From: a virus
Lineage: Duplodnaviria; Caudoviricetes
Virus record (IMG/VR): IMGVR_UViG_3300030102_003865
Coordinates: 1-46,956 of that record
Strand: one strand, 5' to 3'
DNA length: 46,956 nucleotides
Shown: positions 174-22,615 of the stretch, in pieces
Numbering within the stretch: the stretch's first letter is position 1
Layout of the letters: every line of letters begins with the position of its first letter
The notes under the pieces: model-generated
What the model was told of the DNA's origin: nothing
Database searches by the model: none
Seen by the model: the letters and a program-made list of their open reading frames with translations, nothing else
Position numbers and translations under genes: made by a program

Positions 174-248
174 ATTTATAAACTAAATATATTTTTATGA
201 ACAAATAGGGATAGACATATGAATGAATATGTGCGAATAGTACTTAAG

Positions 249-605
249 GCCCCCTTTCGGGGGGCGGGACTGAGAGAGTTAGTTCCAAGCGGTCGGCCTA
301 CCAAGGGGACCCAGTAAAGGCGAGATCAGTACAGACGCTGCACCTTCTAGCATAGGGCGAGTTTAGCACCTCGGAAATTCGATCTTCAAATCTCAGATAC
401 TTACGGCCAGTAATCGCACCGTGAGTCTGAAACAAGCGGGTTTTAACCCCGCCTGAATGCAACCATCTTAGCCCGTCCAATAGGCGTCACTTAGTGAGAG
501 CAGTGGACTGGATAGCTTAATCACTGACCAGCGGTCAGTTTCAGATAGCCTAGATCACGTGCCACCCGAAAGGTGATGGACCGCTTCGCGAGTTCCTATT
601 CAGGC
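249..605 (+). ncRNA. Candidate large structured ncRNA of unknown family
   Basis: GC-rich island between AT-rich flanks with no credible ORF. Helices: 249-254/260-265, 266-273/279-286, 399-406/419-426, 436-440/448-452, 475-479/504-508, 523-529/533-539, 563-566/572-575; long-range 287-294/579-586; crossing pair 451-458/598-605. Strand inferred from neighbours. Confidence 0.65.
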
Positions 606-649
606 CCGATAGATTGGCAACGATTTATAACACTTAACTTTACTAACTT

Positions 650-709
650 CGAAACCGCTGCTAGGCGGTCCGTATAGATTGAGCCCTATACGCTGATGAG
701 ATAGCTCAA
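650..709 (+). ncRNA. Hammerhead ribozyme, type II, 1-bp stem II with pseudoknot
   Basis: C-GAAA (650-654), stem III CCGC/GCGG, GUC cleavage triplet (cut after 670), stem I CGTATAG/CTATACG, CTGATGA-G (693-700); loop I TTGAGC (679-684) pairs with tail GCTCAA (704-709). Confidence 0.93.
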
Positions 710-710
710 A

Positions 711-741: not shown

Positions 742-924
742 ATGCCTAAATTATTAGCCCTTATTGAAAACGGATTCATCACTGAAACTGATGTAAAACT
801 TGCTGCTACTAACTACGATTTGGACCCTATTATTAATGCCTTTGATGAGGCGGGCCAATTCGTTGAGATAACTACTCTTGAAAGTGAATTGTTAAATCAC
901 TTCGAAACAGTCCGAAACAATTAA
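742..924 (+). CDS. Small acidic hypothetical early protein
   Basis: 60-aa ORF, ATG after repeated leader, downstream of hammerhead 1. Confidence 0.7.
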   Translation: MPKLLALIENGFITETDVKLAATNYDLDPIINAFDEAGQFVEITTLESELLNHFETVRNN

Positions 925-941
925 TCCTTAAATTATTTATT

Positions 942-1151
942 ATGAAACAAATTAAATATTCAGATTTACAAGCTTTAAAACAACGGTGGCAAAAATTAAA
1001 AGACCGCCAAGAATTCGAAAAGGGGTCCTCAATGGCCCGTGGAGTCCCGCCCGTATGCACTGTTTACTGGACTGAAAAGGACTGGGCTAACTGGTTTGAA
1101 AGTAGGAAACCTTTAAAGCCTTTTGATGATTGGCTAAAAGATCAAATCTAA
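942..1151 (+). CDS. Small Trp-rich hypothetical early protein
   Basis: 69-aa ORF with AT-rich leader; stop codon abuts hammerhead 2. Confidence 0.75.
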   Translation: MKQIKYSDLQALKQRWQKLKDRQEFEKGSSMARGVPPVCTVYWTEKDWANWFESRKPLKPFDDWLKDQI

Positions 1152-1153
1152 TT

Positions 1154-1210
1154 CGAAACCGCTTAGGCGGTCTATACGAACTGATCACCGTATACTGATG
1201 AGATAGATCA
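1154..1210 (+). ncRNA. Hammerhead ribozyme, type II, 1-bp stem II with pseudoknot
   Basis: C-GAAA (1154-1158), stem III CCGC/GCGG, GUC (cut after 1172), stem I TATACG/CGTATA, CTGATGA-G (1195-1202); loop TGATC (1182-1186) pairs with GATCA (1206-1210). Confidence 0.93.
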
Positions 1211-1233
1211 CTAACTTAACTTACTTAATTATT

Positions 1234-2466
1234 ATGATTAATAGATTCGCTAATACAGCCAAAATCACTATAGCCCAGTTAAAACTAGGCTTTAAACTAT
1301 GGACCGAAAATTTAAATTTCGTTACCATTGCGGGGCCATCGGGCGATGGCAAGACTGAGATAGCAGCCACTGAACTGCCTGAAGTTTTAGGTATTGAAGA
1401 TCCTCGCCTTCATACCGAAGGCGGAGATGTTTATCTCCTTAATTATACTGACAAAGGACCGCAAGAGGCGGCGGGTTATGGCAAGGTAAATGATGATGGA
1501 ATCCACATGGACTTTACTGCTCCACGTGATCTTCCTACAGTCCACCGCGTAAAGAATACGGGCAACGGTGATATTAACCGCCCGATCCTTTTAATTCTTG
1601 ATGAGTTCAGTCTATACGATTCAACGGTGCAAGGAATGATCAGGCCGTTACAAGCTCGTAAAGGTAAACCAATGTTTGGTACTCATGAGCTTGCCCCAAA
1701 CATCAGGATATTGCTTACTGGTAACCGCATTGAGGACGGTTCACAAAATGCAACGGACCCTGATCAAGCGATCCTGACCCGTGGAAAGTTTTTCATTATC
1801 GACAATAACTTTTCGGACTGGATCAAATGGGCCTCATCAAAAGATTGGGCGGTTCAAAATGATGTTATCCAATATCTAAAATACGTCCAATCTATGGGTG
1901 ATACAGTCCGCACCGCTGAAGGTGAAACCCGCCTGAAGATTGATGAGATATTCAAACCTACAATCCCAATGTCAGGCACTGTAAATCCTACAGCTTGCCC
2001 CCGTCAGTGGGAAAACGTTTGCCGAGAGTTCAAAGCTATTCAGGGTATGAATATAACGGACTCTGAAAAAGAGGACCTCTTAAGAATGTCATTAAATGGC
2101 GCGGTGGGAATCAATGTTACTGAGGATATCATGAGCTTTATTCAATCCGTAAAGGATGCGATTCCTAAATATCAGGATGTACGCAATGACATTAAATCGA
2201 TGGCGGACTTCAGTGGCATTGATGCAATGGCAGTGCTCACTGTTGCTACTCAGCACGTGATTAAGGAAGCTAAGAAAATTAGTGGGGCTGCTGAGCCTGA
2301 GCAAATCCGAAAAGATACAGGGCTCAAAGTTAAAGACGGGTCCTTTGATTGGTTTCTTGATAAGTTCATTGACCCCGCAACCAATCAAGAGATGGCGCGG
2401 TTTGCTGCTGAATCTGCTGATCGCTTTGTGAAATTTGAAGGTAACACCACCAAATATAAATTTTAA
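1234..2466 (+). CDS. MoxR-like AAA+ ATPase
   Basis: Walker A GPSGDGKT, Walker B LLILDE, sensor LLTGN, PRQW motif; vWA gene nearby. Confidence 0.85.
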   Translation: MINRFANTAKITIAQLKLGFKLWTENLNFVTIAGPSGDGKTEIAATELPEVLGIEDPRLHTEGGDVYLLNYTDKGPQEAAGYGKVNDDGIHMDFTAPRDLPTVHRVKNTGNGDINRPILLILDEFSLYDSTVQGMIRPLQARKGKPMFGTHELAPNIRILLTGNRIEDGSQNATDPDQAILTRGKFFIIDNNFSDWIKWASSKDWAVQNDVIQYLKYVQSMGDTVRTAEGETRLKIDEIFKPTIPMSGTVNPTACPRQWENVCREFKAIQGMNITDSEKEDLLRMSLNGAVGINVTEDIMSFIQSVKDAIPKYQDVRNDIKSMADFSGIDAMAVLTVATQHVIKEAKKISGAAEPEQIRKDTGLKVKDGSFDWFLDKFIDPATNQEMARFAAESADRFVKFEGNTTKYKF

Positions 2467-3514: not shown

Positions 3515-3542
3515 TTGACACTAACAAACAATTAACTATAAT
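3515..3542 (+). promoter_or_regulatory. Sigma70-type promoter
   Basis: TTGACA-N16-TATAAT, 29 nt upstream of ATG 3572. Confidence 0.8.
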
Positions 3543-8495: not shown

Positions 8496-8822
8496 ATGCA
8501 GTTAACTTACAAAGTATCACCGCAATCTATCGCAAAAGCGATCAGTAAAGTCTCTGGATTCTCAGTTTATGAACTGAAGAACGAAGGGCATTCACATACA
8601 CTCGCCCAGTGGAGACACTTGGGAATGTACTTGGCCCGTGAATCGGGAATGACGTACGTTGAAGCGGGTGAAGTATTCAATCGCCACTTCTCAACAGCAC
8701 TGACCTCGCATAGGAAAGTCAAGAAATCCTTGGACGATCCTCAGATAGCAAATGCTTTAGGGCAAATTAAAAACTTTTTGAATAAAGAAAATAAAGACGA
8801 TGGAAATCAAGAGATTCTATAA
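8496..8822 (+). CDS. Stand-alone DnaA C-terminal (domain IV)-like HTH protein
   Basis: WRHLGMYLARESGMTYVEAGEVFNRHFSTALTSHRKV resembles the DnaA RQIAMYL...IG..F..RDHTTV....K signature. Confidence 0.75.
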   Translation: MQLTYKVSPQSIAKAISKVSGFSVYELKNEGHSHTLAQWRHLGMYLARESGMTYVEAGEVFNRHFSTALTSHRKVKKSLDDPQIANALGQIKNFLNKENKDDGNQEIL

Positions 8823-9139: not shown

Positions 9140-12100
9140 TTACGGATCTACCGATAAGAACCTTGGGTACTTATTCAACTCAGCTTGGAAGTCTCGGAGC
9201 CTTTGGATATGAGTCTCCCCTTTTCTAACCATACGTTCGATGAATGGCATAGGTAAGGATGGTCTATCCATGAGTCCTTTGGCTAGTAGCAACTGGACCC
9301 TCCTCTTACTCATCCCTCTTTGAAGACCGATCTTATAGATCTCTTCTTTGGATAAGCCTTGCCTCTCAAAAGATCTGAACACCCGATTCAGGTGAGCGTT
9401 GACTCTTCGTCTTCCCTCTATTTCTTTTTTTGCTAAAGAAGTTATCTCGGACTTGGTCATCACATCATCAGTCAACAGTCTAAACTTATTTGAGTTGATC
9501 CTATCGAACTCACCTTTCCTCTTCGACACGAAGTTAGATAACCGAACATCGAACTCAATCGGATAAGTCGTTGCGGGTTTGAACTGACCAATGATATTTG
9601 ATATAACTTCAGGAGCCTTAGTGATATCAAACCCATCTTTGAATATCGCCTTATCCTCTATCAGTTTGGTAAGAGTTGGAGGAGTTAATGCCTCATCCAA
9701 TACGTAGCCGAGAGACTTCGTAAATTTCTCATGGAGTAAATCATTCTCCTCGTAGATAGGTTCTTCTTTTTTCGGATCGAAGTTTGACTTCGCATTTAAG
9801 AAAGCCCTCATGAATATCTGATCGTCAAAGAATTCACCTAACGTTCCCTTCACTAAACTCTCTACCGTCTTGGAAGTATTACCGTGAACGAGATGTTCCA
9901 TCGCCCTTAGTGAAGGGTCAGTTAACATCGAGTACGGGTTAATGAAAGTTAAGGAGAAGTTCCTTCTCTCTTTAGTAAGAGGATTTGTATAGTATATGAG
10001 TGATTGATTCTGCATATACGGTGGCAACGTATCACGAAGAGCTTCATCGTCATCGTAGAATATTCCCTGAAGAAGTCTCGTAGTGATGGGAACTATGACT
10101 GAAGATACTCCAGTAACAAACCCGATACCTGCTAGTCTTCTACGTCCACGTTTTCTAATGACGGGGTTGCTATCTTTAGATTCTTTTAAAGCTAGGTTCC
10201 ACGTATTGAAATATGTTCTGATAACCTCACCTTTAAATCGAAGGAAAGGTGAGAACATAACTCCGAAGGTATGTCCCTGAAGTCCAGTGATAATAGGAGG
10301 AGCTTGAGAATATGTTTGAGAAGTCATGACAACTTTCTCGGCTGCTAATCTCTTTAGTTGATAATCAGTTTTGGTTGCATAAAAATCTTGCTTGCCATCC
10401 TTTCTCGATGCTTCTCTCGCATCGATAAGGTATTTAAGTTCATGCTCAAACAAGGCTATCTTGTAGAACGCATCAACAATAGCTGAAAGTTCTTTAGCCT
10501 TGCCCCATGTTTTCTCATTAGCTTTCTGAGCTAACTCTTTTCCTTTGCGAGAGATGCTCTTCCCCTCTTCGTTCTCTAGCCTTGAAAGATTTTTTTCAAA
10601 ATCATTTAAGACTTTTTCTGGAGAGGTCTGCCCACTGAGTAGCTCTTCAATTAGCTTGGGCCTAATCTCATTACCGATAACATCGAGAGCTATCAGTTCT
10701 GTATAGTAATCGTTTGCAGTTTCTTGACGTATTCCCCTTCGGTCTAATTCAGTGATTAAACTCTTGGTCATACTACCCCACTTAACGAATCCATTAGCGG
10801 GACCAAAGTAAAAAGCGTTTGATATTACGTTCCTTACATAGAAGCCAATGTTACCTAAAGTCTTAGACCCTAGAGATAGACCTGTTATTCTGGCTATCAT
10901 CTTAAAGGAACCACTCGCTATCTTTTCTGCATCGTTCGCTGACTCTTGACTAGGCGGATTTAATACGCTCATCAAGCCATCAACCATTTCAGCGGGAGCA
11001 AAGAGTTGTACGTTCTTTGGTTCACCATCTACCTCGACCTCGAAGTTTCTAAATGGGTCATAAGCTTCTGCTCCTCCTGCTTTAATTTGTTTATACCTGC
11101 TTCCACCATACTCATCTATGTTTTCTAATCTCTTTTTCTTGAGCTCATCCTTCGTAAGTATCCACTCGTTTCCTTTCCTGCGTCCGATCTCTAATAAGTT
11201 TTTCATGAACGCTTGGTTCGATGCCATCATACCAACGCTGAGGTAAGTCCTTAAAAGATTCTTGAACCCTGCACCCTCGTCAGTTTCCTCTCCAAGCAGA
11301 GCCCTGATTGATTCATCAATATCTCTTTTCTTTTTCAACTGATTTATCAGAGGACTAGCAAAGGATTCAACAGCTTCAGGTCCTGCTATCAAGTTACTTG
11401 ATTCCTTATCTTTATAACTATGGAGGAATGAAAGCATCATTGACCTACCTAAGTCTTTGTTCTCAGTAAGTTCTTTCTCAGCTAGTGCGGTAGCTTCGGA
11501 CTCCTCTTTACCATCTTTTATAAAGGCTTTAATACGTGCTTGTTTGTAGGTATCTGCAAAGTACTTAGCAGCATTGTCTCTCACGGTGCTGAACTTAGGA
11601 TCTTTGGTAACTTTATCCAACCACCCTGCTTCATTGAACATCTTATATGATCGGGTTATGTATATTCCTAAGTTACTATCTATCGTAGCACTTAGATCTA
11701 CATCCACATTGTAGAGTTCTTTAAGTTTAATCGAAAGAGAATCGACGGTATCACGTAATGCTTTAAGTTCATTAACGAATTCAGGGGATACCTTTTCAAG
11801 TTGAGTTAGTGCAGCGTCCTTTTTCTTTCTAATGATTTCTCTTTGAACGTCTTGCTGTTTGCGGATGTCGTTCTTGTATTTGTTTGTAGCATCCTCAAGA
11901 AGTGTTTTCTTTTCCTCTTCAGTTATCTCTTTACGTTTAGCCTTCTCGTTTATGTCCGCTTTTCTGGACTTGTGTTGAAGATTAATTGCATCTCTCACAT
12001 CATCAGGTATCGACACAACTTTCGAAGAACCTGTAGCTTCAGATATCAATTCGTACGGTATACTAAATCCTTTATCAATAAAGTCTTTATCAAGTATCTT

Positions 12101-15100
12101 CCTTAACTTCGTTGCTCTTAGGTTAACATCATTCTGGACAGCGCGGTTGAATGCTTCTCGTTGTTCGAACATACGTCTGACTCGGATATCAAGAGACCCA
12201 GTCATGGCGACTTTAAATTTACGCCACCAAGAATCCTTGCGTTTCTCTGAATCATATACACCGTCCTCGTAAACAGGAGCTTCTAACATTTTCTCTAACC
12301 TATCGACCGTCACTTCCTCTGTAGAGTAGGTGTATCCTGATATCTTTTTATCAGTAGCACCGAGCTCAGAGTACAAGAACGAATCCATTGTTGGATCAAA
12401 CCTATCAGTCAAAGGAATTATATTACCATCCTCATCGTAAGTTACAGGATCGGATAACTTTATTTGTTCGGGTGTGAGTACGACTGTTATGGTAGCATCT
12501 TCCCCACTGTTTGTTACAAAATCAGCAGTCAAAGCATCTATACCAGTAACTTCTTTGAGAGCTTGGTGATAATGTTTAGCGTATATACCACTACCGTTCA
12601 TGGCTCCAAGCTGTTCGGCTATTGTTTCATTTTGAACAGGATCAGAAAGCATTTCAACAGCGGCCTCTATGCTCCCAAAGTTGGCTACAAAAGTATCATT
12701 GATACTTGCTTCAGGATCTTCTTTTAGCATATCTTGAAACTCCAACTCGTTTACTCTTTCAAGTACGGGTCTCAGTTCCTCTGCCGAAAGAGGGGCGGAG
12801 TCATGAGGGCGTGGGTTGTTTACTTTCAGATACGCAGAAAGAATTCTTCCTCTAAACTTACCTACGCGAGTATATCCCTCCGCAACTGTCCGTGATTTTG
12901 TGAAATAAAAACCTGTACCGTACGCAAAACCTGTACCGAATCCTATCTTACGGTAAGAGAATGCATCGAAATCAGCGGGGGTTCCGTGGAACAGAGGACC
13001 AACAGTGTACCCTGTAGACTCCGCTGCTCGCTTCACGAACTGCTGAAGTACTTCTTTATTTCCTTCAGGATCTTGAGCTAACTCCATGTACCTATCGTTG
13101 GTAGCACCGAGTTCAGATTTTAACAGGTCTTCTTTGACAGGCTCAGTCGCAATTAACAAATTACTTTTCTTAATTACTTTACCAAAAAACTCTTTAATCT
13201 CAGGGACATAGTCGGCTGCTTTCTTATGGTTCTGCCACCCTTTAGTAGTGGTTTTCCCAACGCCATCCCTGTTACCTTCATGAATTAAAAAGTAAGCTTT
13301 GCCCTCTGGTTTTATAGCATTAGCTGCTTGCCTGATTACAAGCCCCCTGCTGTCTTCCTCCTGTATAACATTCAATACGTTATTAACAGTAGCCGTGTCT
13401 GATTGACCGTCTCTTATCTCTTCAACTACTCTCTTATTGTGTACTTCTCCTCTGTTAAATGGATCATATATAAAGTTAGCAACTCCTAAAGTAGCTAGTT
13501 TTTCTGTACCATTATCAAAACTTCCTCCTCCTATATCAGCATTCTTAGTTCCCTCTTCCCATTCAATTATTCCTTTATCTGTTAAGGAGCCAAAGGTAGC
13601 GGGTAGTTTATCTCTATTGATTGAGGTATCAGCACTAGATATTTGCTGACCTTCTGGGTAAGTCCATATATTTTCAGTAGCACCAAGGCCACTATGTAAA
13701 AGTCTTGGACCCGTATCAAACCTGTTACTTAACGGAATGATATCTCCAAAGTCATCGCGCGTTACCTCCGCAGATTTAATTTGTTCAGGTGAAAATACTA
13801 CCCAAACATCAGAAGCTTCATAATGGATAGCGTCGTAACCACTTATCTTTGAAACCAACTTAGTTGCTGCTGCTCTTCGATTTGTTTGGTCTGGAGATAT
13901 ACGGATAACGTCTGCACCTTGCCTCGCGAATGTCTCGCTACGAGTCGTATCAAAATCTTCAGCCGACTTAATAAGGTCCTCTTCAATCTTACGGAAATTA
14001 GAATTTTCAGGATAAGTTTTAACAAGTTCTCTTACTTGTTGATCAAACTTTAAGCCATCTACTAAGTAAACTATAGGTTGCTTTTCGGTAGCATAACCCG
14101 TTTCATATAAAAACTGATCGATTTCTATTTCCGATAAGTTGTACTCACGCGATAAACCTTCAGCAAATTCTTTAAAAAACTCTTGTTTGTCTTGGATTGC
14201 CGCATCAGTTCCGCTACTGTAATCTTCTATGAGTCTGTAAGATCCTTCAGTATGGCTTACTCTTGTTCTAAAAACTTTGTCCGCTTTTAGAAATGTTTGA
14301 TAAACTCTACCAACATCTCCCTGCGCGTAGTTAGCTGCTACATTATAGTTGCCTGTAAAATAAAACCCATGACCACCGACACTTCTCATTATAAAATTAC
14401 TGTCGAAAGTTTTTAAGTCTTTGTTAGTAGATCCGTGGAAAACAATAACAGGTGCTCCCTCTACTACATGACCCTTCTGTCGGGCTTCAGTTTCCAATAG
14501 CTGTGTTAGTGAAAGGTCGCGCTCTTTAGAAGGATCGGCTGCATCCATGTACGCTTGTCCTCTGACAGCTTTTATCTTGTCTCGATAAGTTCCCTCTCTT
14601 TGCATCTTTAGATGCTCTTTAGAATTTACTACAACAGAGTTAGTTGGGTTGGGGTAGGCGACTGAGTCTCTTGGGTTGCCTGTTAGGTTACCTATGGTGA
14701 CATGATAAATTCTGTCCTTATCAGGAGAAGGCCCGCCTATTATATTCTTTTCTACAAAATTATTTAAGACTTCTTGTTCAACAACTCTACGTACCAATGA
14801 CTGTCTAAGCGTACCGTCAGGTTGTATTTGAGTAGATATTTCAGGAGCGTGAAACGTGAGGTTAGGGAACACTGCAACAGGGCTCTGTCCAGTAAGACGG
14901 AAAGCCTCTCCTAAGATATCAGTTTCTGCTACCTCGTCAGTAAACTCTTTACTTATCAAAGTAATATGTATGTCTTCTTCTTTTAGAGGAATGAAATTAC
15001 TTTTCCCAAACTTAAAGTTTTGTTGTTCCTGTTGAACGAGTTCCGAAAGTTTTTCTGACTTCAACATATAGATGCCAGTCTTAACAACCCTGCCCTTTAT

Positions 15101-18100
15101 AGGGTCCTCGTTGTTATTAAGGGCTTCAATATCAAAAGGACCTAAATCAGATAGCCTTAGTTCCTGCCCTCCTCTATCAATCTTGCGATTGTTGCCCATC
15201 ATATCAGAGAACTCTTGAGCAAGAGGAATCAATTCCTCTATGGGAAGATCTACTACATTGACATTTGCCATAGACTCTGGATTGATCAACATCATTTGAC
15301 CGTATCGATGATTGCCATCAAGAATAAATCCGTCAGAGCTCATCACTGAAAAAGGTTTATCGCTTAAACCTCCGACAGAGTCTTGCATATTGAAGTGCTT
15401 TTGCATAGCAAACCAAACTGTTTTAGGGAAAAACAATTCAGTCTGATAGGGTTTCATAGTAGCTACACGAACACTCTTTTGCCTCACGCTTACTGGTCGC
15501 TCTAACTTTTCACTCAAGAATCTACCAAACTCTTCTACTTGTTGAGGTTGAACGATTGGCATTTCTTCTCTCGATACCTCTCCTATCTGCTCTCTAGTCT
15601 CTAATAAAATAGCTTTAAGATTATTATAGTTCGATTCGAATTCTGGTATCTCATCAAGGAATGATCGAGCAACTCCCATCTCATCAAATTTACCCTGAGC
15701 CCTGATCCCTGCATCCTTAGCCGATGTATCAAGAATCCTGTCTGTCTCTGGTCCTGCCTCTATTGGCTTTCCAGTTATCCCCAAACTTGTAAACAGTACC
15801 TCTGTTCTCATTGGGTCGAAGCGGAGATCAAGAGGAACGACTTGTGTTTCATAGCGGAGACCTCCATCTTCTCTATCTTCTACAGCATTCAAGGACTGTT
15901 TAAAAGTAACTGTCTCAGCAGACTTTATATTATAAGGTTCAAATATAGCAAGGCTTCTACCATACTTACCCGATGTATCTTCTCTTTCGTAGTGTCCGTC
16001 ATACCCTAATCTTTTAAGAGCGTTACGTACTGAAAGATTTATCTTACGAGGATCGTCATCGTAAGCTAAGTTAGTAACTTCGTAATTAGAGAAGAACGAA
16101 TACTGTCCCTGTTTCAGCTTCTCTCTAAACATGCTCTCATCAAACTCCCCCTCAGATAGATTTTTAAATTCATCTTCTTGCTTTAGCTTTGAGATAAATT
16201 CATCAACCTGAGAAGGATCTTCATGATCAAATAATTTAAGGTCCTTCTTAATATACCAACGATGTAAGATTATATCTGAAAGAGACTCTTGTTGAGCTAT
16301 GGCTGAGATACTTTGTGCATCTTTAGGGGTCTCTGAAACAAAAGCAGACACGGTCCCGAACCTAGTTTGAGGAGTATCTATATTATACTTGGTACTTCCG
16401 TGATAGTACACGGTACTAGTATCATAGCCATTAGCCTCTGCTGCCTTTTTTACTAAAGCATTTAAGTCAGCTACAGACTTTTTATTATCAGCCACCCAAG
16501 CGTCCAGTATTTGGACTTTAGCTCTTGTGTTATCTTCTTCATTTAAAATACTAACATCTAATACTTTCTCTACCTCCTTAGAGTTCAATAAATCCTCAAG
16601 ATTATTGTTACCTGAGTCACCTGTTAAGATAAGCTTACGGAATTGTTTAGTATCAGCAGCTAATTCTGATTGAAGTATATCAGGGTCTTCGAGTTCGGGT
16701 GTGTCTTCAGGGAACACCTCACCTAAAGTTGTGTTTTGTAGTCCTGTTATATAATCATCAGGACTATTTGGATCAAACACAAGATTCCCCGCAGTGAATC
16801 GGTCCCTCCCCATTAAAACATTTATTTCCTCAACCAAATTAGATATTGCCATATCCATTTCAGGCGTGGTAAGTCCCTTCTTCTTTAGTTTGAGTAAGCG
16901 TGAGACCATTCTTCTTAAATACTCAAGTACTATCTGAAGTTTAGTAGGGTCTCCTGTCCAAAATTCATAGTTCGCCTCTGAAGTAGTCCCCGTCATTCTA
17001 TCCTGAGCATACATACGGAGCTTTTCCTCTATAAGAATCTCTTTAGTTTGCTGAACGGTAGTCTCTTCTTCTGATTGTAAGGCTGCTTTTAGTTGCTCGT
17101 TCCGTGCAGGGTTATCTGGAGTGTACTCATCAACAATAGTCTCAAACTCTGCATCAGTAGTTTCATTAATTAACTTGTTTAATTGTTTTTTAGATATAGA
17201 TCTGTACGAAGCAACGTGAGCTACTTCTTCTCCCATAATAGAATTAAGTATCCGACGAATTACAGATTCTGATTTACCTTTCTTAATTAAATTAGCTACC
17301 GAGTTCTGGTTAAGGAATACATCACCCGTCCTAGCACGAGCAGCAGCAAGTCCTCCAGTCGTGTTAGTAATATTTAAGCTAAGTCCGTTACGCCTAACAA
17401 ACATCCCCATGCGATTTATCAATCGCGTTAAAATATTTGATTCATCTACTGTCAGAGTATCATCTGATTCTACTTTTGAGGTATCCGTTTCATCTTGTCC
17501 CGCTTCTTGATTATCAAGTCTCCTCTTATTTGTAGGACTAATCTCAGTTCTAAGTACATCAGGTTCACCTGTAGCTCTTGGAGACCATACCTCTTCGACA
17601 CCTTGCTCAACAGAACCAACACTTTTGGCTATCTTCTGCAACTTGCGGAGGTCATCGATTGTACGACTTGTTATATCCGAAACACTTTCTGTTGCGGTAG
17701 GCACATCAGGAGTTGCTTGTTCTCCGAAAGCATAGTGAGTTGTAGTATGTGCTTCGGCAGAACTCTTTCTTATCGCATTGATAACAGCGATTGTTTTTGG
17801 AGTGCTGAATGACTGTCCTAAAGTTGCTTCAACTCTTGCCCGTACGTCTTCAAGTAAAGCTAAGTCTTTAGTTATGTCTCCTTCTTTGCTAACCGAATCG
17901 GTAGTACCACTAATAAGTCTAAGTAGAGTATGTAAAGGACGACTGTCTTTGCCCCTTAAAGATTTTTTATATAAATCTAAGAAGGCTTGGCCCATTGTCT
18001 TTTCTCTAGTTAGAGTGGTTTTACTATCTAGATCTATAGAGCGTAGCGTAGGACCTTGATCGAGTATCAAGCCTAGTACTTCGTTTCCTGACATTACACC

Positions 18101-21100
18101 AATACGCCAGTCTGCTTGCCCATCGACATCTCTTATAGCGGTGGTTATATCAAGATAATTATTAACCGCTTCCCGTAAAGATGCGTCTTCTTCAAGAACC
18201 GCAGCGGCATCAAGAGCTAGATCGTTCATGAAATTAACCGCAGCAGGATCGAAGGTCGCTGCAACTGAAGGGTCTACCAATCTTACGTACCTACGTGTTT
18301 GTGTATCTTTAGGGTAGAATTTTCCTTCAGCGTCTTTGTAGTTTGTTTGGAAAGAATTAAATCTATTAAATACTCGAAGACCTACTTCACGGAAACTAAT
18401 AGAATCTTTTTGGAGTAAAGGATCATTAAGTACATAGTCCGAAAGGAACTCTAATATTACTTTGTCTGACTTAGTTTCTGAAGTAGCTAAGTTTATTTTT
18501 AAAACAGAAGCTGCTTGCTCAACAGCATCAGGATCGGATGAAGCTAACCTACTCTTAAAAACCTCAAGGCCCTTTTTAGTTGGAGTAGTTACACCAGTGT
18601 CTTCATTAATTTCAACCGCCCCCTCTGTTTCACGTAAGGTTGTGTTCAATTCGTGGAGAACTGTAACCATATTAAACTCTTGCTCAAGAGCTATAACAGC
18701 TTGATCTGAGAAGTCAGACTCAAGTACATCTTGAGCTTTAGGTGATTTAAGAAGGTTTAAAGCTTCAACTTTACCTTCAGGGTTTTCGCGAACAGCTTTG
18801 AAAAAATCTGTGATCTGTTGGCGTACTTCTCTTATAGGCTGCTCTTTGGATTGAGCTGTTCCTTTTTTCCTGAAATTAGATCTTAGTTCGGTTCCCTCTC
18901 CTAATGGTCTAGTACCTACAACAACTCCTCTTTCATTATTTGAAAAAAGATTTAGTACTTCAGTATTGCTAGATAAGTTATCTGCAACTGAAGGGAATAC
19001 TTCGTTGATTGAGTTTTTGTTTACTCGTTTATTACCTGAGAAACCTCCATCAATTAGAACTCCCTCAATCAAATCACTGCCTTCTTTATAAATGAAAGCA
19101 GGGTTTAAATCCGCTTTTGATATAGGGGCTTTGATGGAATAACCCATCAATAAAAGCTTTGCTGCCTTAACAGGATCATTCTCAAACAGTGCGTTTCCAT
19201 CACTATCTAAGTATCCAATAACTTTACCATTATCCTTTACAGGGTTTTTAACATCTTGAGGCAAAAAGCTAGAGCGTTTAGGATAACGACGTTGTATTAA
19301 CTCATTTAAAAGTTGAGATTTATTTTCATAATATCCTTTAGGGAACATTGACCTATCAGGCATACCATGAACAGCGCGGTCTTGAGTAAGATCAACGGGG
19401 ACCCCTTTACGTATTAAGTCTTCAAAAGCTTTTACCTCAGTAGCTGTAAGGTGGTCATCAATAAATTCTTCTTTAGCAATAGGTATATCAGCAGTAGGGA
19501 ATACATACTCCTGCCCTTTGATAATGCTAGTGCTTTCGTTCAGACGAGATATAAGTTGCTGTAACTTTCTTTCTTCAGGATGTATCTTTTTGGTTTTAAC
19601 TTTTTGTTTTGTTGCTTCGTTAGCAACTCCTGAAGTAGGTTGGCTAGATGTATTAGAACGAGAATCTAGTTGAGAAGCTAAAGACTCAGCTACAGATTCA
19701 GGAGATATTTTTTCATCTAGAATATTTAAAAAATTGTCTTGGTACTCTAATTGAAACTCAAGTTGCGTGGGATCATCAGGTGTAGCTTCAAAATCTAAAG
19801 CTAACTCTAACTGAAGTTCTTCTTGTTCTTCTTGTTCTGCTCTATCAGGACCCTCGCTATCTATAAGACCTGAGAAAGGAAACTCTGTTTGGTCTTTAAT
19901 AGAAACAGGAACTAGATTGCCTTTTTCGTCAGGTACAAGGGTTGTTTCAACAGGGGATACTGCGGTATCTTCTGTAGGGTACGTTCCTTCTCCTGCTATA
20001 GGTTCTAATTCTGGAGTTTCTTCTGGAGTTTCTTCTGGTCTTCTTCTCCTTCTTTCTCCTACCTCTCTTTGTGGAGCGGTTAATAACCGTCGAGTCTCTT
20101 GTGCTTCGAACTCGTCTGCTGTAGCGGGAGCTCCTGCCTCTTTAAGTTTTTCTATAATTTCATCTGCAACCTGAGCCCTGTACCTTGCTTCATCGCCAGT
20201 GGGTCCTCCAAGTTTATTATATAACCCTCTTGCTCCTGTAGCACCTCCACCAAATATTCCACCTAATAGCATAGAGTGTCCTACACCCGCAGCTATTTCT
20301 TTTAGCGGAGTGTCTTCATTAAGAGCAGCGTCCCTCACAAAAGTCTGTGCGAGTTCATCAATACCTTCTTCAATAGACTCACTTAAAGTACCTTCAATGA
20401 TAGGAGAGTTGCCTAAAGCTCTTCTCATTTTCTTTTTTAAGAATTTCTCAGCAACTTCGTTGGATACATCATCCCCTAAGTTTACGCCAAGTTGCCTATT
20501 CATTACCCCTTTCATCTGCCTGAAAGTCATTCCATCAAGGAATGCTTCTTCCAAACCACCGCGACCTAACTTCATAAAAGCAGTCGTGATCAATCCTGTA
20601 ATAGTTCCCGCCAACAAAGAAGATCCAATCGCTGCGTCATACTTCTCATCATGAGACATATCTTCAGGCATTGAATTATATATGGTGGTAAACATTCCAC
20701 CTGCACTTCTATTAGCTGACGTTACAAACAGAGAGCCAAAGGTTTTGGAACTCATGAGAAGCTTGTTATCAAGCATCTGGTTGTAGACGTTTATTGCTTC
20801 GATAGCATTTTTCTCGCTCGTGCTCCTTATAAGTTTTTCTTTTAAATTCTTTTCTGCTAGTTCCCTTACTGCAACTTCTCTAGGGTCCAATACCCTTGAA
20901 TATCCAAGACCTGCATCAACAGTCTTTTCTAAAAAATCTTTTTTGCTGGCTGTTCTTAACACTCCCCCAAGCATCCCTTTAGCAAATCCTTTGGCCGTAA
21001 GAGTAGTACCTGTCTTGAGTCCAATGTAAGCTGCACCACCCGCACCCATTGTAGCCATACTTAGAGCAGCCGTTGCTCCTATATCTACAAGCACTGGAGC

Positions 21101-22615
21101 AACCATAGTCATAACATCCATACCTAAGCCGTATTCCTGATTGAATAACTTAGCGACTTCTCGTCTTCTGGATTCTTCTTGAGCAGCTTCTCCTAATCTT
21201 CTAGCAGCATCTTCGCTTTTAAATAAAAGAGCAGCGGGGATGTTATATAAAGAAGTAAAAGAGTCGCCTATAGAAGCCAGTATAGAAGTAGACTGATTTT
21301 TTAAAGCATCGTAATTATCTTGATTAGATAAAAATTTATCGAGAGTCTCTACAGGATCTTCTCCTGCTTGGGCTCCCTGAGCAGACGCAGCTATCCACTG
21401 TTCAGAAGTAGCTTTAGTTTCTTTTAGTATGTTATTAACAGACTCATACCTTTGCCTCTTATAAAAATCTCTTTGGTTTCGTAACGAATCTTTTTGCTTA
21501 TCAGTTAGCCTTGTATCTTTTTCTAGAGCCTCTTCAAAACGAGTAGGCTGTAACATAAGTTGTGGGTGCGCTACTGCTGTCGTACCATACACACGAATAT
21601 TTTTAGTCAGGTCTGCGTCTTCAGAAAAGTATTCAAACTCTCCAGAAAGGTTAGCTCTAAGAGCAGCTTGTTCTTCTATAACAGACTTAATCTCTTCATC
21701 AGAAAATCTTTTAGAAGCAAGATTTAAATTAACATCTTTGTCTTTAGAGTATTGCTCGGCTAATTGTTCACGTAGTAATTTGTTAAAAAAGTTCCTATCT
21801 TTTTTAACAAACATTCCACCGTGTAGTTCTTCTTTAGCGGATCTACCCTGATCTTCTCTAATAAGTAAATCAGATAAAGCATCGAAGTTTTCTCTAGCTT
21901 GGTCATTACCCACCTCATCCGAAAGTAGGTTTTGTACTTCATTTAATAATCGGCTTCTCCTCTGATCTTTAAATCTGTTAGCTCCGATATCGCTTCCTTG
22001 CTGTAATCCTGACTGAACGAGAATAGCATCTTCATAAGAGACAGCTCCATCACGAACGGCATTTTCAAAAGCTGAAACAGGATTCATTACTGAAGTCCCT
22101 CCAATAATTTGTCTGCTTCCATCAAGATTACTTAAAGAAGCAAAAGGAAGTTCTCCTACATCAACAAGAAATGACTTAGCATCATTTAAAGTTTTGTTAA
22201 GAACCTCTTCACTCTCACCGTTTTCTTTGCCCTGCTTCCAAACGCTCGCGACGTTTTCTCCAAAAGCTCTAGTAACAAGATTAGTCTGCTTGTCTAAAGA
22301 TACAGGATTAGGTTTAAATATCTCAGAGTTCGGGGTCTCTTCATCAATAAATCCTTCTTCTAGTAAGTGTCTTTTTAAAGAGGCATTGATATTACCTTCA
22401 ACAGCTTCACTTAAAGTACCTTGATCGAACCAATGCATACGATGGTAGTTCGCATAGCTCCTCCACTTTTGTTCACGATCTGGTATTCCTGATCCAATTT
22501 GAGCGTCCCATGTATCAAAGTCTAAAGGAGGCGTAACATTATCGGCCTCCTGTGGGTTAACGGGTTCTATTGCAAAGGGTGATAATCCCTTAGAGAAGGG
22601 CGATATTTCTGACAT
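9140..22615 (-). CDS. Giant polyvalent protein, probable internal virion (ejected) protein
   Basis: 4491 aa; Gly/Ala-rich hydrophobic N-terminal segments, EEVAH zincin-like motif, three HG[ST]...[FL].P..IK ART-like modules, ParB-like DGNHR, 2H motifs HIT/HVT, SAM motif DIGGG. Confidence 0.8.
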   Translation of the reverse strand: MSEISPFSKGLSPFAIEPVNPQEADNVTPPLDFDTWDAQIGSGIPDREQKWRSYANYHRMHWFDQGTLSEAVEGNINASLKRHLLEEGFIDEETPNSEIFKPNPVSLDKQTNLVTRAFGENVASVWKQGKENGESEEVLNKTLNDAKSFLVDVGELPFASLSNLDGSRQIIGGTSVMNPVSAFENAVRDGAVSYEDAILVQSGLQQGSDIGANRFKDQRRSRLLNEVQNLLSDEVGNDQARENFDALSDLLIREDQGRSAKEELHGGMFVKKDRNFFNKLLREQLAEQYSKDKDVNLNLASKRFSDEEIKSVIEEQAALRANLSGEFEYFSEDADLTKNIRVYGTTAVAHPQLMLQPTRFEEALEKDTRLTDKQKDSLRNQRDFYKRQRYESVNNILKETKATSEQWIAASAQGAQAGEDPVETLDKFLSNQDNYDALKNQSTSILASIGDSFTSLYNIPAALLFKSEDAARRLGEAAQEESRRREVAKLFNQEYGLGMDVMTMVAPVLVDIGATAALSMATMGAGGAAYIGLKTGTTLTAKGFAKGMLGGVLRTASKKDFLEKTVDAGLGYSRVLDPREVAVRELAEKNLKEKLIRSTSEKNAIEAINVYNQMLDNKLLMSSKTFGSLFVTSANRSAGGMFTTIYNSMPEDMSHDEKYDAAIGSSLLAGTITGLITTAFMKLGRGGLEEAFLDGMTFRQMKGVMNRQLGVNLGDDVSNEVAEKFLKKKMRRALGNSPIIEGTLSESIEEGIDELAQTFVRDAALNEDTPLKEIAAGVGHSMLLGGIFGGGATGARGLYNKLGGPTGDEARYRAQVADEIIEKLKEAGAPATADEFEAQETRRLLTAPQREVGERRRRRPEETPEETPELEPIAGEGTYPTEDTAVSPVETTLVPDEKGNLVPVSIKDQTEFPFSGLIDSEGPDRAEQEEQEELQLELALDFEATPDDPTQLEFQLEYQDNFLNILDEKISPESVAESLASQLDSRSNTSSQPTSGVANEATKQKVKTKKIHPEERKLQQLISRLNESTSIIKGQEYVFPTADIPIAKEEFIDDHLTATEVKAFEDLIRKGVPVDLTQDRAVHGMPDRSMFPKGYYENKSQLLNELIQRRYPKRSSFLPQDVKNPVKDNGKVIGYLDSDGNALFENDPVKAAKLLLMGYSIKAPISKADLNPAFIYKEGSDLIEGVLIDGGFSGNKRVNKNSINEVFPSVADNLSSNTEVLNLFSNNERGVVVGTRPLGEGTELRSNFRKKGTAQSKEQPIREVRQQITDFFKAVRENPEGKVEALNLLKSPKAQDVLESDFSDQAVIALEQEFNMVTVLHELNTTLRETEGAVEINEDTGVTTPTKKGLEVFKSRLASSDPDAVEQAASVLKINLATSETKSDKVILEFLSDYVLNDPLLQKDSISFREVGLRVFNRFNSFQTNYKDAEGKFYPKDTQTRRYVRLVDPSVAATFDPAAVNFMNDLALDAAAVLEEDASLREAVNNYLDITTAIRDVDGQADWRIGVMSGNEVLGLILDQGPTLRSIDLDSKTTLTREKTMGQAFLDLYKKSLRGKDSRPLHTLLRLISGTTDSVSKEGDITKDLALLEDVRARVEATLGQSFSTPKTIAVINAIRKSSAEAHTTTHYAFGEQATPDVPTATESVSDITSRTIDDLRKLQKIAKSVGSVEQGVEEVWSPRATGEPDVLRTEISPTNKRRLDNQEAGQDETDTSKVESDDTLTVDESNILTRLINRMGMFVRRNGLSLNITNTTGGLAAARARTGDVFLNQNSVANLIKKGKSESVIRRILNSIMGEEVAHVASYRSISKKQLNKLINETTDAEFETIVDEYTPDNPARNEQLKAALQSEEETTVQQTKEILIEEKLRMYAQDRMTGTTSEANYEFWTGDPTKLQIVLEYLRRMVSRLLKLKKKGLTTPEMDMAISNLVEEINVLMGRDRFTAGNLVFDPNSPDDYITGLQNTTLGEVFPEDTPELEDPDILQSELAADTKQFRKLILTGDSGNNNLEDLLNSKEVEKVLDVSILNEEDNTRAKVQILDAWVADNKKSVADLNALVKKAAEANGYDTSTVYYHGSTKYNIDTPQTRFGTVSAFVSETPKDAQSISAIAQQESLSDIILHRWYIKKDLKLFDHEDPSQVDEFISKLKQEDEFKNLSEGEFDESMFREKLKQGQYSFFSNYEVTNLAYDDDPRKINLSVRNALKRLGYDGHYEREDTSGKYGRSLAIFEPYNIKSAETVTFKQSLNAVEDREDGGLRYETQVVPLDLRFDPMRTEVLFTSLGITGKPIEAGPETDRILDTSAKDAGIRAQGKFDEMGVARSFLDEIPEFESNYNNLKAILLETREQIGEVSREEMPIVQPQQVEEFGRFLSEKLERPVSVRQKSVRVATMKPYQTELFFPKTVWFAMQKHFNMQDSVGGLSDKPFSVMSSDGFILDGNHRYGQMMLINPESMANVNVVDLPIEELIPLAQEFSDMMGNNRKIDRGGQELRLSDLGPFDIEALNNNEDPIKGRVVKTGIYMLKSEKLSELVQQEQQNFKFGKSNFIPLKEEDIHITLISKEFTDEVAETDILGEAFRLTGQSPVAVFPNLTFHAPEISTQIQPDGTLRQSLVRRVVEQEVLNNFVEKNIIGGPSPDKDRIYHVTIGNLTGNPRDSVAYPNPTNSVVVNSKEHLKMQREGTYRDKIKAVRGQAYMDAADPSKERDLSLTQLLETEARQKGHVVEGAPVIVFHGSTNKDLKTFDSNFIMRSVGGHGFYFTGNYNVAANYAQGDVGRVYQTFLKADKVFRTRVSHTEGSYRLIEDYSSGTDAAIQDKQEFFKEFAEGLSREYNLSEIEIDQFLYETGYATEKQPIVYLVDGLKFDQQVRELVKTYPENSNFRKIEEDLIKSAEDFDTTRSETFARQGADVIRISPDQTNRRAAATKLVSKISGYDAIHYEASDVWVVFSPEQIKSAEVTRDDFGDIIPLSNRFDTGPRLLHSGLGATENIWTYPEGQQISSADTSINRDKLPATFGSLTDKGIIEWEEGTKNADIGGGSFDNGTEKLATLGVANFIYDPFNRGEVHNKRVVEEIRDGQSDTATVNNVLNVIQEEDSRGLVIRQAANAIKPEGKAYFLIHEGNRDGVGKTTTKGWQNHKKAADYVPEIKEFFGKVIKKSNLLIATEPVKEDLLKSELGATNDRYMELAQDPEGNKEVLQQFVKRAAESTGYTVGPLFHGTPADFDAFSYRKIGFGTGFAYGTGFYFTKSRTVAEGYTRVGKFRGRILSAYLKVNNPRPHDSAPLSAEELRPVLERVNELEFQDMLKEDPEASINDTFVANFGSIEAAVEMLSDPVQNETIAEQLGAMNGSGIYAKHYHQALKEVTGIDALTADFVTNSGEDATITVVLTPEQIKLSDPVTYDEDGNIIPLTDRFDPTMDSFLYSELGATDKKISGYTYSTEEVTVDRLEKMLEAPVYEDGVYDSEKRKDSWWRKFKVAMTGSLDIRVRRMFEQREAFNRAVQNDVNLRATKLRKILDKDFIDKGFSIPYELISEATGSSKVVSIPDDVRDAINLQHKSRKADINEKAKRKEITEEEKKTLLEDATNKYKNDIRKQQDVQREIIRKKKDAALTQLEKVSPEFVNELKALRDTVDSLSIKLKELYNVDVDLSATIDSNLGIYITRSYKMFNEAGWLDKVTKDPKFSTVRDNAAKYFADTYKQARIKAFIKDGKEESEATALAEKELTENKDLGRSMMLSFLHSYKDKESSNLIAGPEAVESFASPLINQLKKKRDIDESIRALLGEETDEGAGFKNLLRTYLSVGMMASNQAFMKNLLEIGRRKGNEWILTKDELKKKRLENIDEYGGSRYKQIKAGGAEAYDPFRNFEVEVDGEPKNVQLFAPAEMVDGLMSVLNPPSQESANDAEKIASGSFKMIARITGLSLGSKTLGNIGFYVRNVISNAFYFGPANGFVKWGSMTKSLITELDRRGIRQETANDYYTELIALDVIGNEIRPKLIEELLSGQTSPEKVLNDFEKNLSRLENEEGKSISRKGKELAQKANEKTWGKAKELSAIVDAFYKIALFEHELKYLIDAREASRKDGKQDFYATKTDYQLKRLAAEKVVMTSQTYSQAPPIITGLQGHTFGVMFSPFLRFKGEVIRTYFNTWNLALKESKDSNPVIRKRGRRRLAGIGFVTGVSSVIVPITTRLLQGIFYDDDEALRDTLPPYMQNQSLIYYTNPLTKERRNFSLTFINPYSMLTDPSLRAMEHLVHGNTSKTVESLVKGTLGEFFDDQIFMRAFLNAKSNFDPKKEEPIYEENDLLHEKFTKSLGYVLDEALTPPTLTKLIEDKAIFKDGFDITKAPEVISNIIGQFKPATTYPIEFDVRLSNFVSKRKGEFDRINSNKFRLLTDDVMTKSEITSLAKKEIEGRRRVNAHLNRVFRSFERQGLSKEEIYKIGLQRGMSKRRVQLLLAKGLMDRPSLPMPFIERMVRKGETHIQRLRDFQAELNKYPRFLSVDP

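Follow-up and report, generated by a model that had tools for sequence, protein, structure and literature searches.

It is apparent from sequence comparison that positions 249-628 on the + strand of the window, the whole stretch of 46,956 nucleotides of viral DNA that was analysed, form a region of about 380 bases that is conserved as a folded non-coding RNA. The RNA is a real but uncatalogued large phage ncRNA of narrow range, with a predicted end that is defined by a ribozyme, and it lies at the start of a 9-kb + strand block of early genes, a position that suggests it works very early in infection. A large uncatalogued structured RNA on this strand had been proposed by a first-pass annotation for 249-605, and both the covariation between related sequences and the lack of an Rfam family bear the proposal out. 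The elements that surround the RNA are as follows.

212..241 (+), sigma70-like promoter candidate (TAGACA, 18 nt, AATAGT), a 9/12 consensus match
650..710 (+), hammerhead 1 (type II), with its cut predicted after C670; has the core motifs and stems, and pairing between loop I and the 3' tail
742..924 (+), ORF of 60 aa, the first protein cassette; no Pfam or PHROG family
942..1151 (+), ORF of 69 aa; no family
1151..1212 (+), type II hammerhead 2, predicted cut after 1172; RF02276 at 31.3 bits, E 0.00045, below gathering
1234..2466 (+), 410-aa ATPase; phrog_1297, E 2e-23; the anchor for finding relatives

Relatives of the RNA

The window is a linear virus record that is about 78% complete, and neither the RNA region nor the adjacent ATPase has a match among isolated phages. 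The ATPase served to find two viral contigs that carry the region upstream of it (L001 and L002), and a gapped pattern searched in metagenomes added L150 and L144, of which L144 has the same score as L002. The alignment used (A4) therefore consists of four distinct sequences, these being the window, L001, L002 and L150, with the three relatives 86-91% identical to the window (L001 86%, L002 90.5%). The copies are mosaic, with L001 the same as the window from about 510 on, and L150 having one arm in common with L001 and most of the remainder in common with L002, thus the four copies are not independent draws.

Scans of viral contigs with 15-mers gave 85 and 12 loci, in which the two known relatives were the only real ones. 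A three-part gapped pattern gave two real loci out of 12 in viral contigs (both already known), two out of 21 in metagenomes (L144 and L150) and none out of 13 in GTDB genomes. Scans for the ATPase in metagenomes and genomes gave nothing, the INPHARED phages and plasmids had no match, and searches of 60 and 32 sources with models R1 and R2 recovered the window alone. These models also had no match in record G003 or in four distant ATPase-bearing phage records (30-35% to the query, three of them at least 99% complete), which had been found through the ATPase. The known range is narrow, being one clade, with no distant homologue found in the searches made.

Covariation and the lack of coding

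RNAalifold of the four sequences gives 101 pairs, of which 15 have two-sided changes. In 200 controls, in which the window sequence was kept and the substitution pattern of each column moved to a random ungapped column before refolding, the number of two-sided pairs averaged 3.4 and reached 11 at most, so that the check on homologue covariation that had been proposed places the RNA above 200 of 200 controls. When only the 301 well-aligned columns are used there are 11 two-sided pairs, against a control mean of 1.8 and maximum of 7, and covariation is present in nine separate helices beyond the 5'-terminal hairpin P1. A hand-refined model, fitted with the alignment in view, has two-sided changes in 14 of its 104 pairs and 97.8% of its cells paired, which none of 500 shuffles match; once P1, the variable domain and one misaligned arm are left out of this hand-fitted model, every changed pair-cell (30 of 30) is a standard pair. 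Seven of the eight one-sided comparisons pass through G-U, and these G-U-compatible changes favour an RNA on the + strand.

The same cannot be said of folding energy. The first-pass annotation had held that folding no better than dinucleotide shuffles would speak against the RNA, and this is what was found for 249-605 alone (z of -0.88 on the + strand and -1.91 on the - strand), thus the case rests on the homologues. The z-score is -1.7 for 249-628 and lies between -1.25 and -2.9 for the three homologues (+ strand).

A conserved coding signature, which would also have told against the RNA, is absent from the four copies, with 5-11 stops in each frame of each copy and indels of 1, 2 and 16 nt among them; the coding reading was rejected because of these stops in all frames and the lack of a conserved frame. 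When the window is compared with L002, 153 of 168 unpaired positions and 177 of 194 paired positions are conserved (both 91%), against matches at 80 of the 149 four-fold sites in the ATPase. The conservation of unpaired bases is as expected if they provide tertiary contacts or a binding surface, although some of the identity may reflect a recent common ancestor of the module, as identity in L144 and L150 is also 83-85% over the upstream non-coding DNA at 136-245.

No Rfam family is found at the gathering threshold, nothing overlaps 249-605 at E up to 10 when 1-1300 is searched, and over the fold there is no match at E up to 10 in the window or the three homologue loci, which includes GOLLD, ROOL and OLE. 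The earlier statement that no tRNA, tmRNA, RNase P or group I/II signatures could be seen agrees with ARAGORN, Rfam and motif searches. ARAGORN gives no tRNA or tmRNA genes in the window, and a tRNA or tmRNA was rejected on this and on the lack of a conserved (tag) frame; core motifs of group I introns, group II introns and RNase P, with one mismatch allowed, give scattered partial matches in which the required order is absent, and these classes were rejected for want of an Rfam match and of convincing core motifs. A guide or antisense to the phage's own DNA was also rejected, the matches being 12-13-mers only and judged, without a null, to be at chance level.

The literature searched, in which subscription papers were covered only in part, holds no description of this RNA. 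The accessible part of an IMG/VR screen (PMC10690425) gives candidates of at most 151 nt, and the three of its six supplements that were searched have no match, with the rest possibly listing a fragment of the RNA.

Composition has a bearing on how the region stands out. The sharply GC-richer island that had been reported holds against the upstream DNA (0.48-0.60 versus 0.18-0.34) but not against nearby coding DNA (0.39-0.52), thus 249-605 is an island only relative to AT-rich intergenic DNA. The AT-rich upstream DNA at 50-185 has imperfect repeats and an inverted repeat at 58-72, is partly kept in L150 and L144, and may contain protein-binding sites near the genome end.

Parts of the fold

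The fold has many helices, with the parts and their changes being the following.

249..265 (+), P1, 5'-terminal hairpin; the L001 sequence differs, with the hairpin retained
266..286 (+), P2, hairpin of 8 bp with a GAGAG loop; invariant but for one G-U to A-U change
291..311 (+), P3, interrupted hairpin with ACCA loop; 297:306 C-G to G-C, 292:310 G-C to G-U
321..387 (+), variable domain with two UAGCA-loop hairpins; alignment with indels, internal pairing by eye, poorly aligned
399..426 (+), P5, 8-bp hairpin with 12-nt conserved loop; 400:425 C-G to U-A
436..452 (+), P6 hairpin; 437:451 C-G to U-A, 441:446 U-A to C-G
453..603 (+), multibranched core, closed by 453-458/598-603
459-562 (+), long arm of the core, holding 472-511 and 515-549
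563-575 (+), CGAAA-loop hairpin of the core
578-596 (+), local hairpin of the core
609..628 (+), P13, 8-bp hairpin with GCAA tetraloop; 611:626 A-U to G-C, 612:625 G-U to A-U

Two-sided changes in the core occur at 475:508, 477:506, 487:497, 521:545, 563:575, 565:573 (with three pair types) and 579:595, with none in the closing helix 453-458/598-603 or in 459-471/550-562. The variable domain of L001 is rewritten and 16 nt shorter, with one UAGCA-loop hairpin; the occurrence of this loop once or twice resembles a repeated binding site.

Every motif that the first-pass annotation named is present where it was placed, and many local helices are confirmed by covariation. Its larger claim was of a pseudoknot in which an 8-bp helix (287-294/579-586) is crossed by another (451-458/598-605), and here the two helices fare differently. 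All four sequences retain 451-458/598-605, which has one two-sided change (451:605 G-C to A-U); base 451 also covaries with 437. Both end pairs of 287-294/579-586 are broken in two of three homologues (L002 and L150) without compensation, with the 6-bp core never varying, and the pairing CCATC/GATGG (463-467/575-579), suggested to stack on it, loses two of five pairs in two of three homologues. Perfect 8-bp pairings at least 100 nt apart are more numerous than in 2000 shuffles (4 observed versus a mean of 0.38). The two crossing helices taken together are not better than shuffles (117 of 500).

The strands of the long helix have other partners nearby. P3 takes up half of the 5' strand, with 291-294 pairing locally with 308-311, and on the 3' side the 579:595 G-C to A-U substitution is a compensated change in the hairpin 578-596, of which the loop and bulge absorb the other changes. 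In RNAalifold the long helix has a probability of 0.00, the hairpin 578-596 one of 0.97 and 453-458/598-603 one of 0.92, thus with the long-helix strands having favoured local partners the latter reads as an ordinary multiloop-closing helix. Counting against this nested model, the closing helix reaches only 0.00-0.04 in single-sequence ensembles at 37 C. Among the unpaired bases the only pairings possible in all four sequences are 274-277/391-394 and 393-396/427-430 (4 bp each), neither with covariation in the four; the invariant pairing of the P2 loop (274-277) with 391-394 could be a pseudoknot. Two conserved unpaired parts of the RNA, at 311-317 and 407-413 of the window, contain the sequence CAGUAA, and L150 alters both copies.

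Hammerheads, cassettes and promoter

A type II hammerhead follows the RNA in all four lineages, with the predicted cut 53-69 nt past the loop of the last (GCAA) hairpin. Both copies in the window and those of the relatives have GAAA, stem III, a UH cut site, stem I and CUGANGA with an open stem II, and from copy to copy loop I varies in step with the 3' tail, in the manner of the published pseudoknot. Neither window copy reaches the RF02276 gathering score of 37 bits and copy 1 is not listed; its equivalents in L150 (34.5 bits) and L002 (26.5 bits) are also below this threshold. According to the accessible part of PMC3088659, prophage hammerheads of this kind that lie in tandem cleave both in vitro and within E. 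coli, and clusters of them have been suggested to process a transcript into short mRNAs. The placement of hammerhead 1 supports the earlier claim that it sets the 3' end of the RNA, but the boundary at 605 does not stand, as the fold extends to about 628 and the predicted product to 670. Cleavage by the hammerhead would leave the RNA with a 2',3'-cyclic phosphate and the downstream product with a 5'-OH. With its predicted ends, a start near 247 and the cut at 670, the mature molecule could be made by simple transcription. Four RNA sequencing runs have no reads over the RNA or the hammerhead site, which says nothing on expression either way.

The window and L001 have two hammerheads per locus and L002 has three. 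The first ORF behind the RNA is the same in the window and L001, with another in L002 (114 aa) and another in L150 (101 aa), and since the hammerhead follows in four of four whilst the first ORF differs between three, the RNA is not bound to any single gene. Beyond the first, most hammerheads begin directly behind a stop codon and before an A/U-rich leader and a small ORF, an arrangement seen at 650-1212 of the window, 460-1432 of L002 and 813-1270 of L150. That the ORFs behind hammerheads differ between relatives suggests that small-ORF cassettes are shuffled by recombination at near-identical hammerheads. A pattern search for hammerheads gave 15 loci (L104-L118). The 13 of these that belong to other phages lack the RNA; most lie between small genes, and some are in tandem.

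Transcription probably starts near 247, behind the promoter candidate at 212-241. This candidate alone is not above chance (five such sites found versus 3.1 expected), with its TAGACA hexamer being invariant in L001 and L002 and also present in L150 and L144. In each of the four copies the RNA sits between such a promoter motif and the type II hammerhead. A perfect 12/12 sigma70 match at 3515-3542 suggests that the phage uses sigma70-type promoters, and further promoter-like sites lie within the gene block. The terminator-like matches on the + strand between 630 and 3500 are only weak ones, inside the ATPase gene.

Likeness to known systems

The closest parallel to the arrangement is found in the prophage hammerheads of Perreault (RF02276, PMC3088659), which, in the part of the paper available, are also of type II, have the loop I-tail pseudoknot and occur as copies flanking single variable genes, with one archaeal-virus hammerhead preceding the first early ORF. 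In those clusters as described there the released pieces are genes, with no conserved non-coding fold of 380 nt among them. GOLLD and ROOL are similarly large, ornate and phage-encoded, form cages via kissing loops and A-minor contacts, and have functions that are described as poorly understood (accessible part of bioRxiv 2024.12.08.627333). The window RNA differs from them in being about 380 nt, in its place at an early promoter candidate and before a hammerhead, and in having no covariation-backed pseudoknot and no Rfam match; they are often near tRNA genes, which the window RNA is not, in a record that is about 78% complete.

HK022 put, Bacillus EAR and pLS20 conAn2 are, in the accessible part of PMC8191782, structured RNAs that head a long transcription unit. 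The window RNA is promoter-proximal in a long operon as put and EAR-type elements are, with the promoter being a consensus match only, but it has no sequence match to these three, has a ribozyme cut behind it and has few terminators to bypass. The ToxI mimics of phage TE are reportedly phage RNA decoys built of short repeated units. The likeness to these is in the proposed mode, a phage RNA neutralising a host protein, whereas the window RNA is one large multi-domain fold.

Possible function

The best explanation, held with a confidence that stops somewhat short of even, is that an RNA of about 420 nt, once cut free, works in trans by binding a host protein as a folded decoy or inhibitor. Transcription would come first, from a host-type promoter with a start near 247, and the RNA would fold into a many-helix structure with a 5' hairpin. 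The hammerhead would then cut at 670, giving the RNA of about 420 nt with a 2',3'-cyclic phosphate and downstream mRNAs with a 5'-OH, which is what hammerhead chemistry predicts for the cut and its ends. Once released, the RNA would bind the host protein in trans during takeover with no translation needed, and would be the first slot of a hammerhead-punctuated array in which the later slots are swappable small proteins. Expression, stability, action in trans and a protein partner are what we infer beyond the alignment.

As the RNA would be severed from the messages, and is constant while they swap, it is unlikely to control the translation of any one gene, which therefore leaves action in trans or action on the elongating polymerase. 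A binder in trans is favoured because unpaired bases are conserved, the UAGCA loop occurs once or twice and there is little termination before the next promoter; the few, close and mosaic sequences, the unremarkable folding energy and the four distant phages without the RNA are points against it. Action on the polymerase would make the RNA a cis-acting leader that binds RNA polymerase for processive early transcription, like HK022 put or Bacillus EAR, with the hammerhead only discarding the leader. This is unlikely, although the RNA does come straight after the promoter candidate that precedes a 9-kb block of genes on one strand and remains constant while genes change, and RNA-only antiterminators exist (PMC8191782, in the part available). 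The terminators it would have to overcome are few and weak, further promoter-like sites lie in the block, a cut about 40 nt behind the fold would probably sever the tether, and there is no Rfam match to such elements. If its target in trans is a host protein or RNA polymerase, the RNA would extend the phage effectors by a translation-independent class.

It seems improbable that the RNA assembles with itself into a dimer or a cage, an RNA-only particle like GOLLD, ROOL or OLE; it is large, ornate and phage-borne with conserved loops (GNRA, CGAAA and UAGCA), and 586-591 is a self-complementary hexamer in both sequence variants, but this hexamer is equally explained by the hairpin 578-596, the RNA is much shorter than the 659-nt ROOL and the 800-nt GOLLD, and the window has neither a tRNA nor an Rfam match to such RNAs. 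A similarly low probability is given to the long helix as a second conformer, in which a 5-6-bp core (288-293/580-585) replaces local hairpins to give a pseudoknotted switch. The invariance of the 6-bp core in four of four, that of AAGC 287-290 even though it is unpaired in the nested model, and a probability of 0.83 for the core in L150 alone at 37 C would all be accounted for, yet both 3'-strand substitutions break the helix and are explained by the hairpin 578-596, and a consensus probability of 0.00 and a match in 117 of 500 shuffles argue the other way. It is very unlikely that the RNA is a new large ribozyme, ligating or further processing the hammerhead products for instance, as whilst conserved unpaired bases surround a multibranched core located among ribozymes, no Rfam ribozyme or intron family, convincing core motif, or substrate or splice-site pattern is found. 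That there is no functional RNA, only a terminal or origin element acting at the DNA level or chance folding, is hardly credible; it would suit the weak folding z-scores and the conservation of flanking non-coding DNA, but not covariation in nine helices beyond P1 that beats 200 of 200 controls, nor one-strand G-U-compatible changes.

A parallel in a distant phage

A distant relative (record G004) has a 493-nt stretch at L157:2388-2880 that overlaps no long ORF, is promoter-proximal and has a folding z-score of -5.1 against shuffles. It lies between a promoter-like site, read by eye, and the first early gene, and it has two UAGCA motifs and, by eye, a possible long-range 8-bp pairing. The stretch has no Rfam match, no match of note in the phage collection and no hammerhead by pattern search. 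Homology to the window RNA was rejected, since alignment scores and shared k-mers are at the level of shuffles and the models give at most 1.5 bits. As a single sequence without homologues in hand it is a lead.

A bolder and rather doubtful extension of the binder in trans is that the first product of the early promoter is an RNA weapon, which would disable or hijack a host machine before any phage protein is made, and that the slot it occupies is interchangeable, because the distant relative would fill it with a different large RNA. If this is true, hammerhead-punctuated early arrays carry RNA effectors besides protein ones.

Other features of the window

The genes of the window include those for a terminase, a family A DNA polymerase, a primase, a helicase, an amidase and a 4491-aa protein. 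As to the host, one close relative of the ATPase carries a Planctomycetota MAG label, and no lineage was obtained from the DnaA-like protein described below. Between 1234 and 5197 the ATPase is followed by a 312-aa unknown protein and then by a DUF2201 metallopeptidase/vWA protein. The 4491-aa protein (9140-22615, - strand) has an ART-PolyVal ADP-ribosyltransferase domain (PF18760, E 2e-31) and is otherwise almost unannotated. At the end of the early block (8496-8822) there is a 108-aa protein that is a stand-alone DnaA C-terminal helix-turn-helix (PF08299), which could be a competitor for the DnaA boxes of the host.
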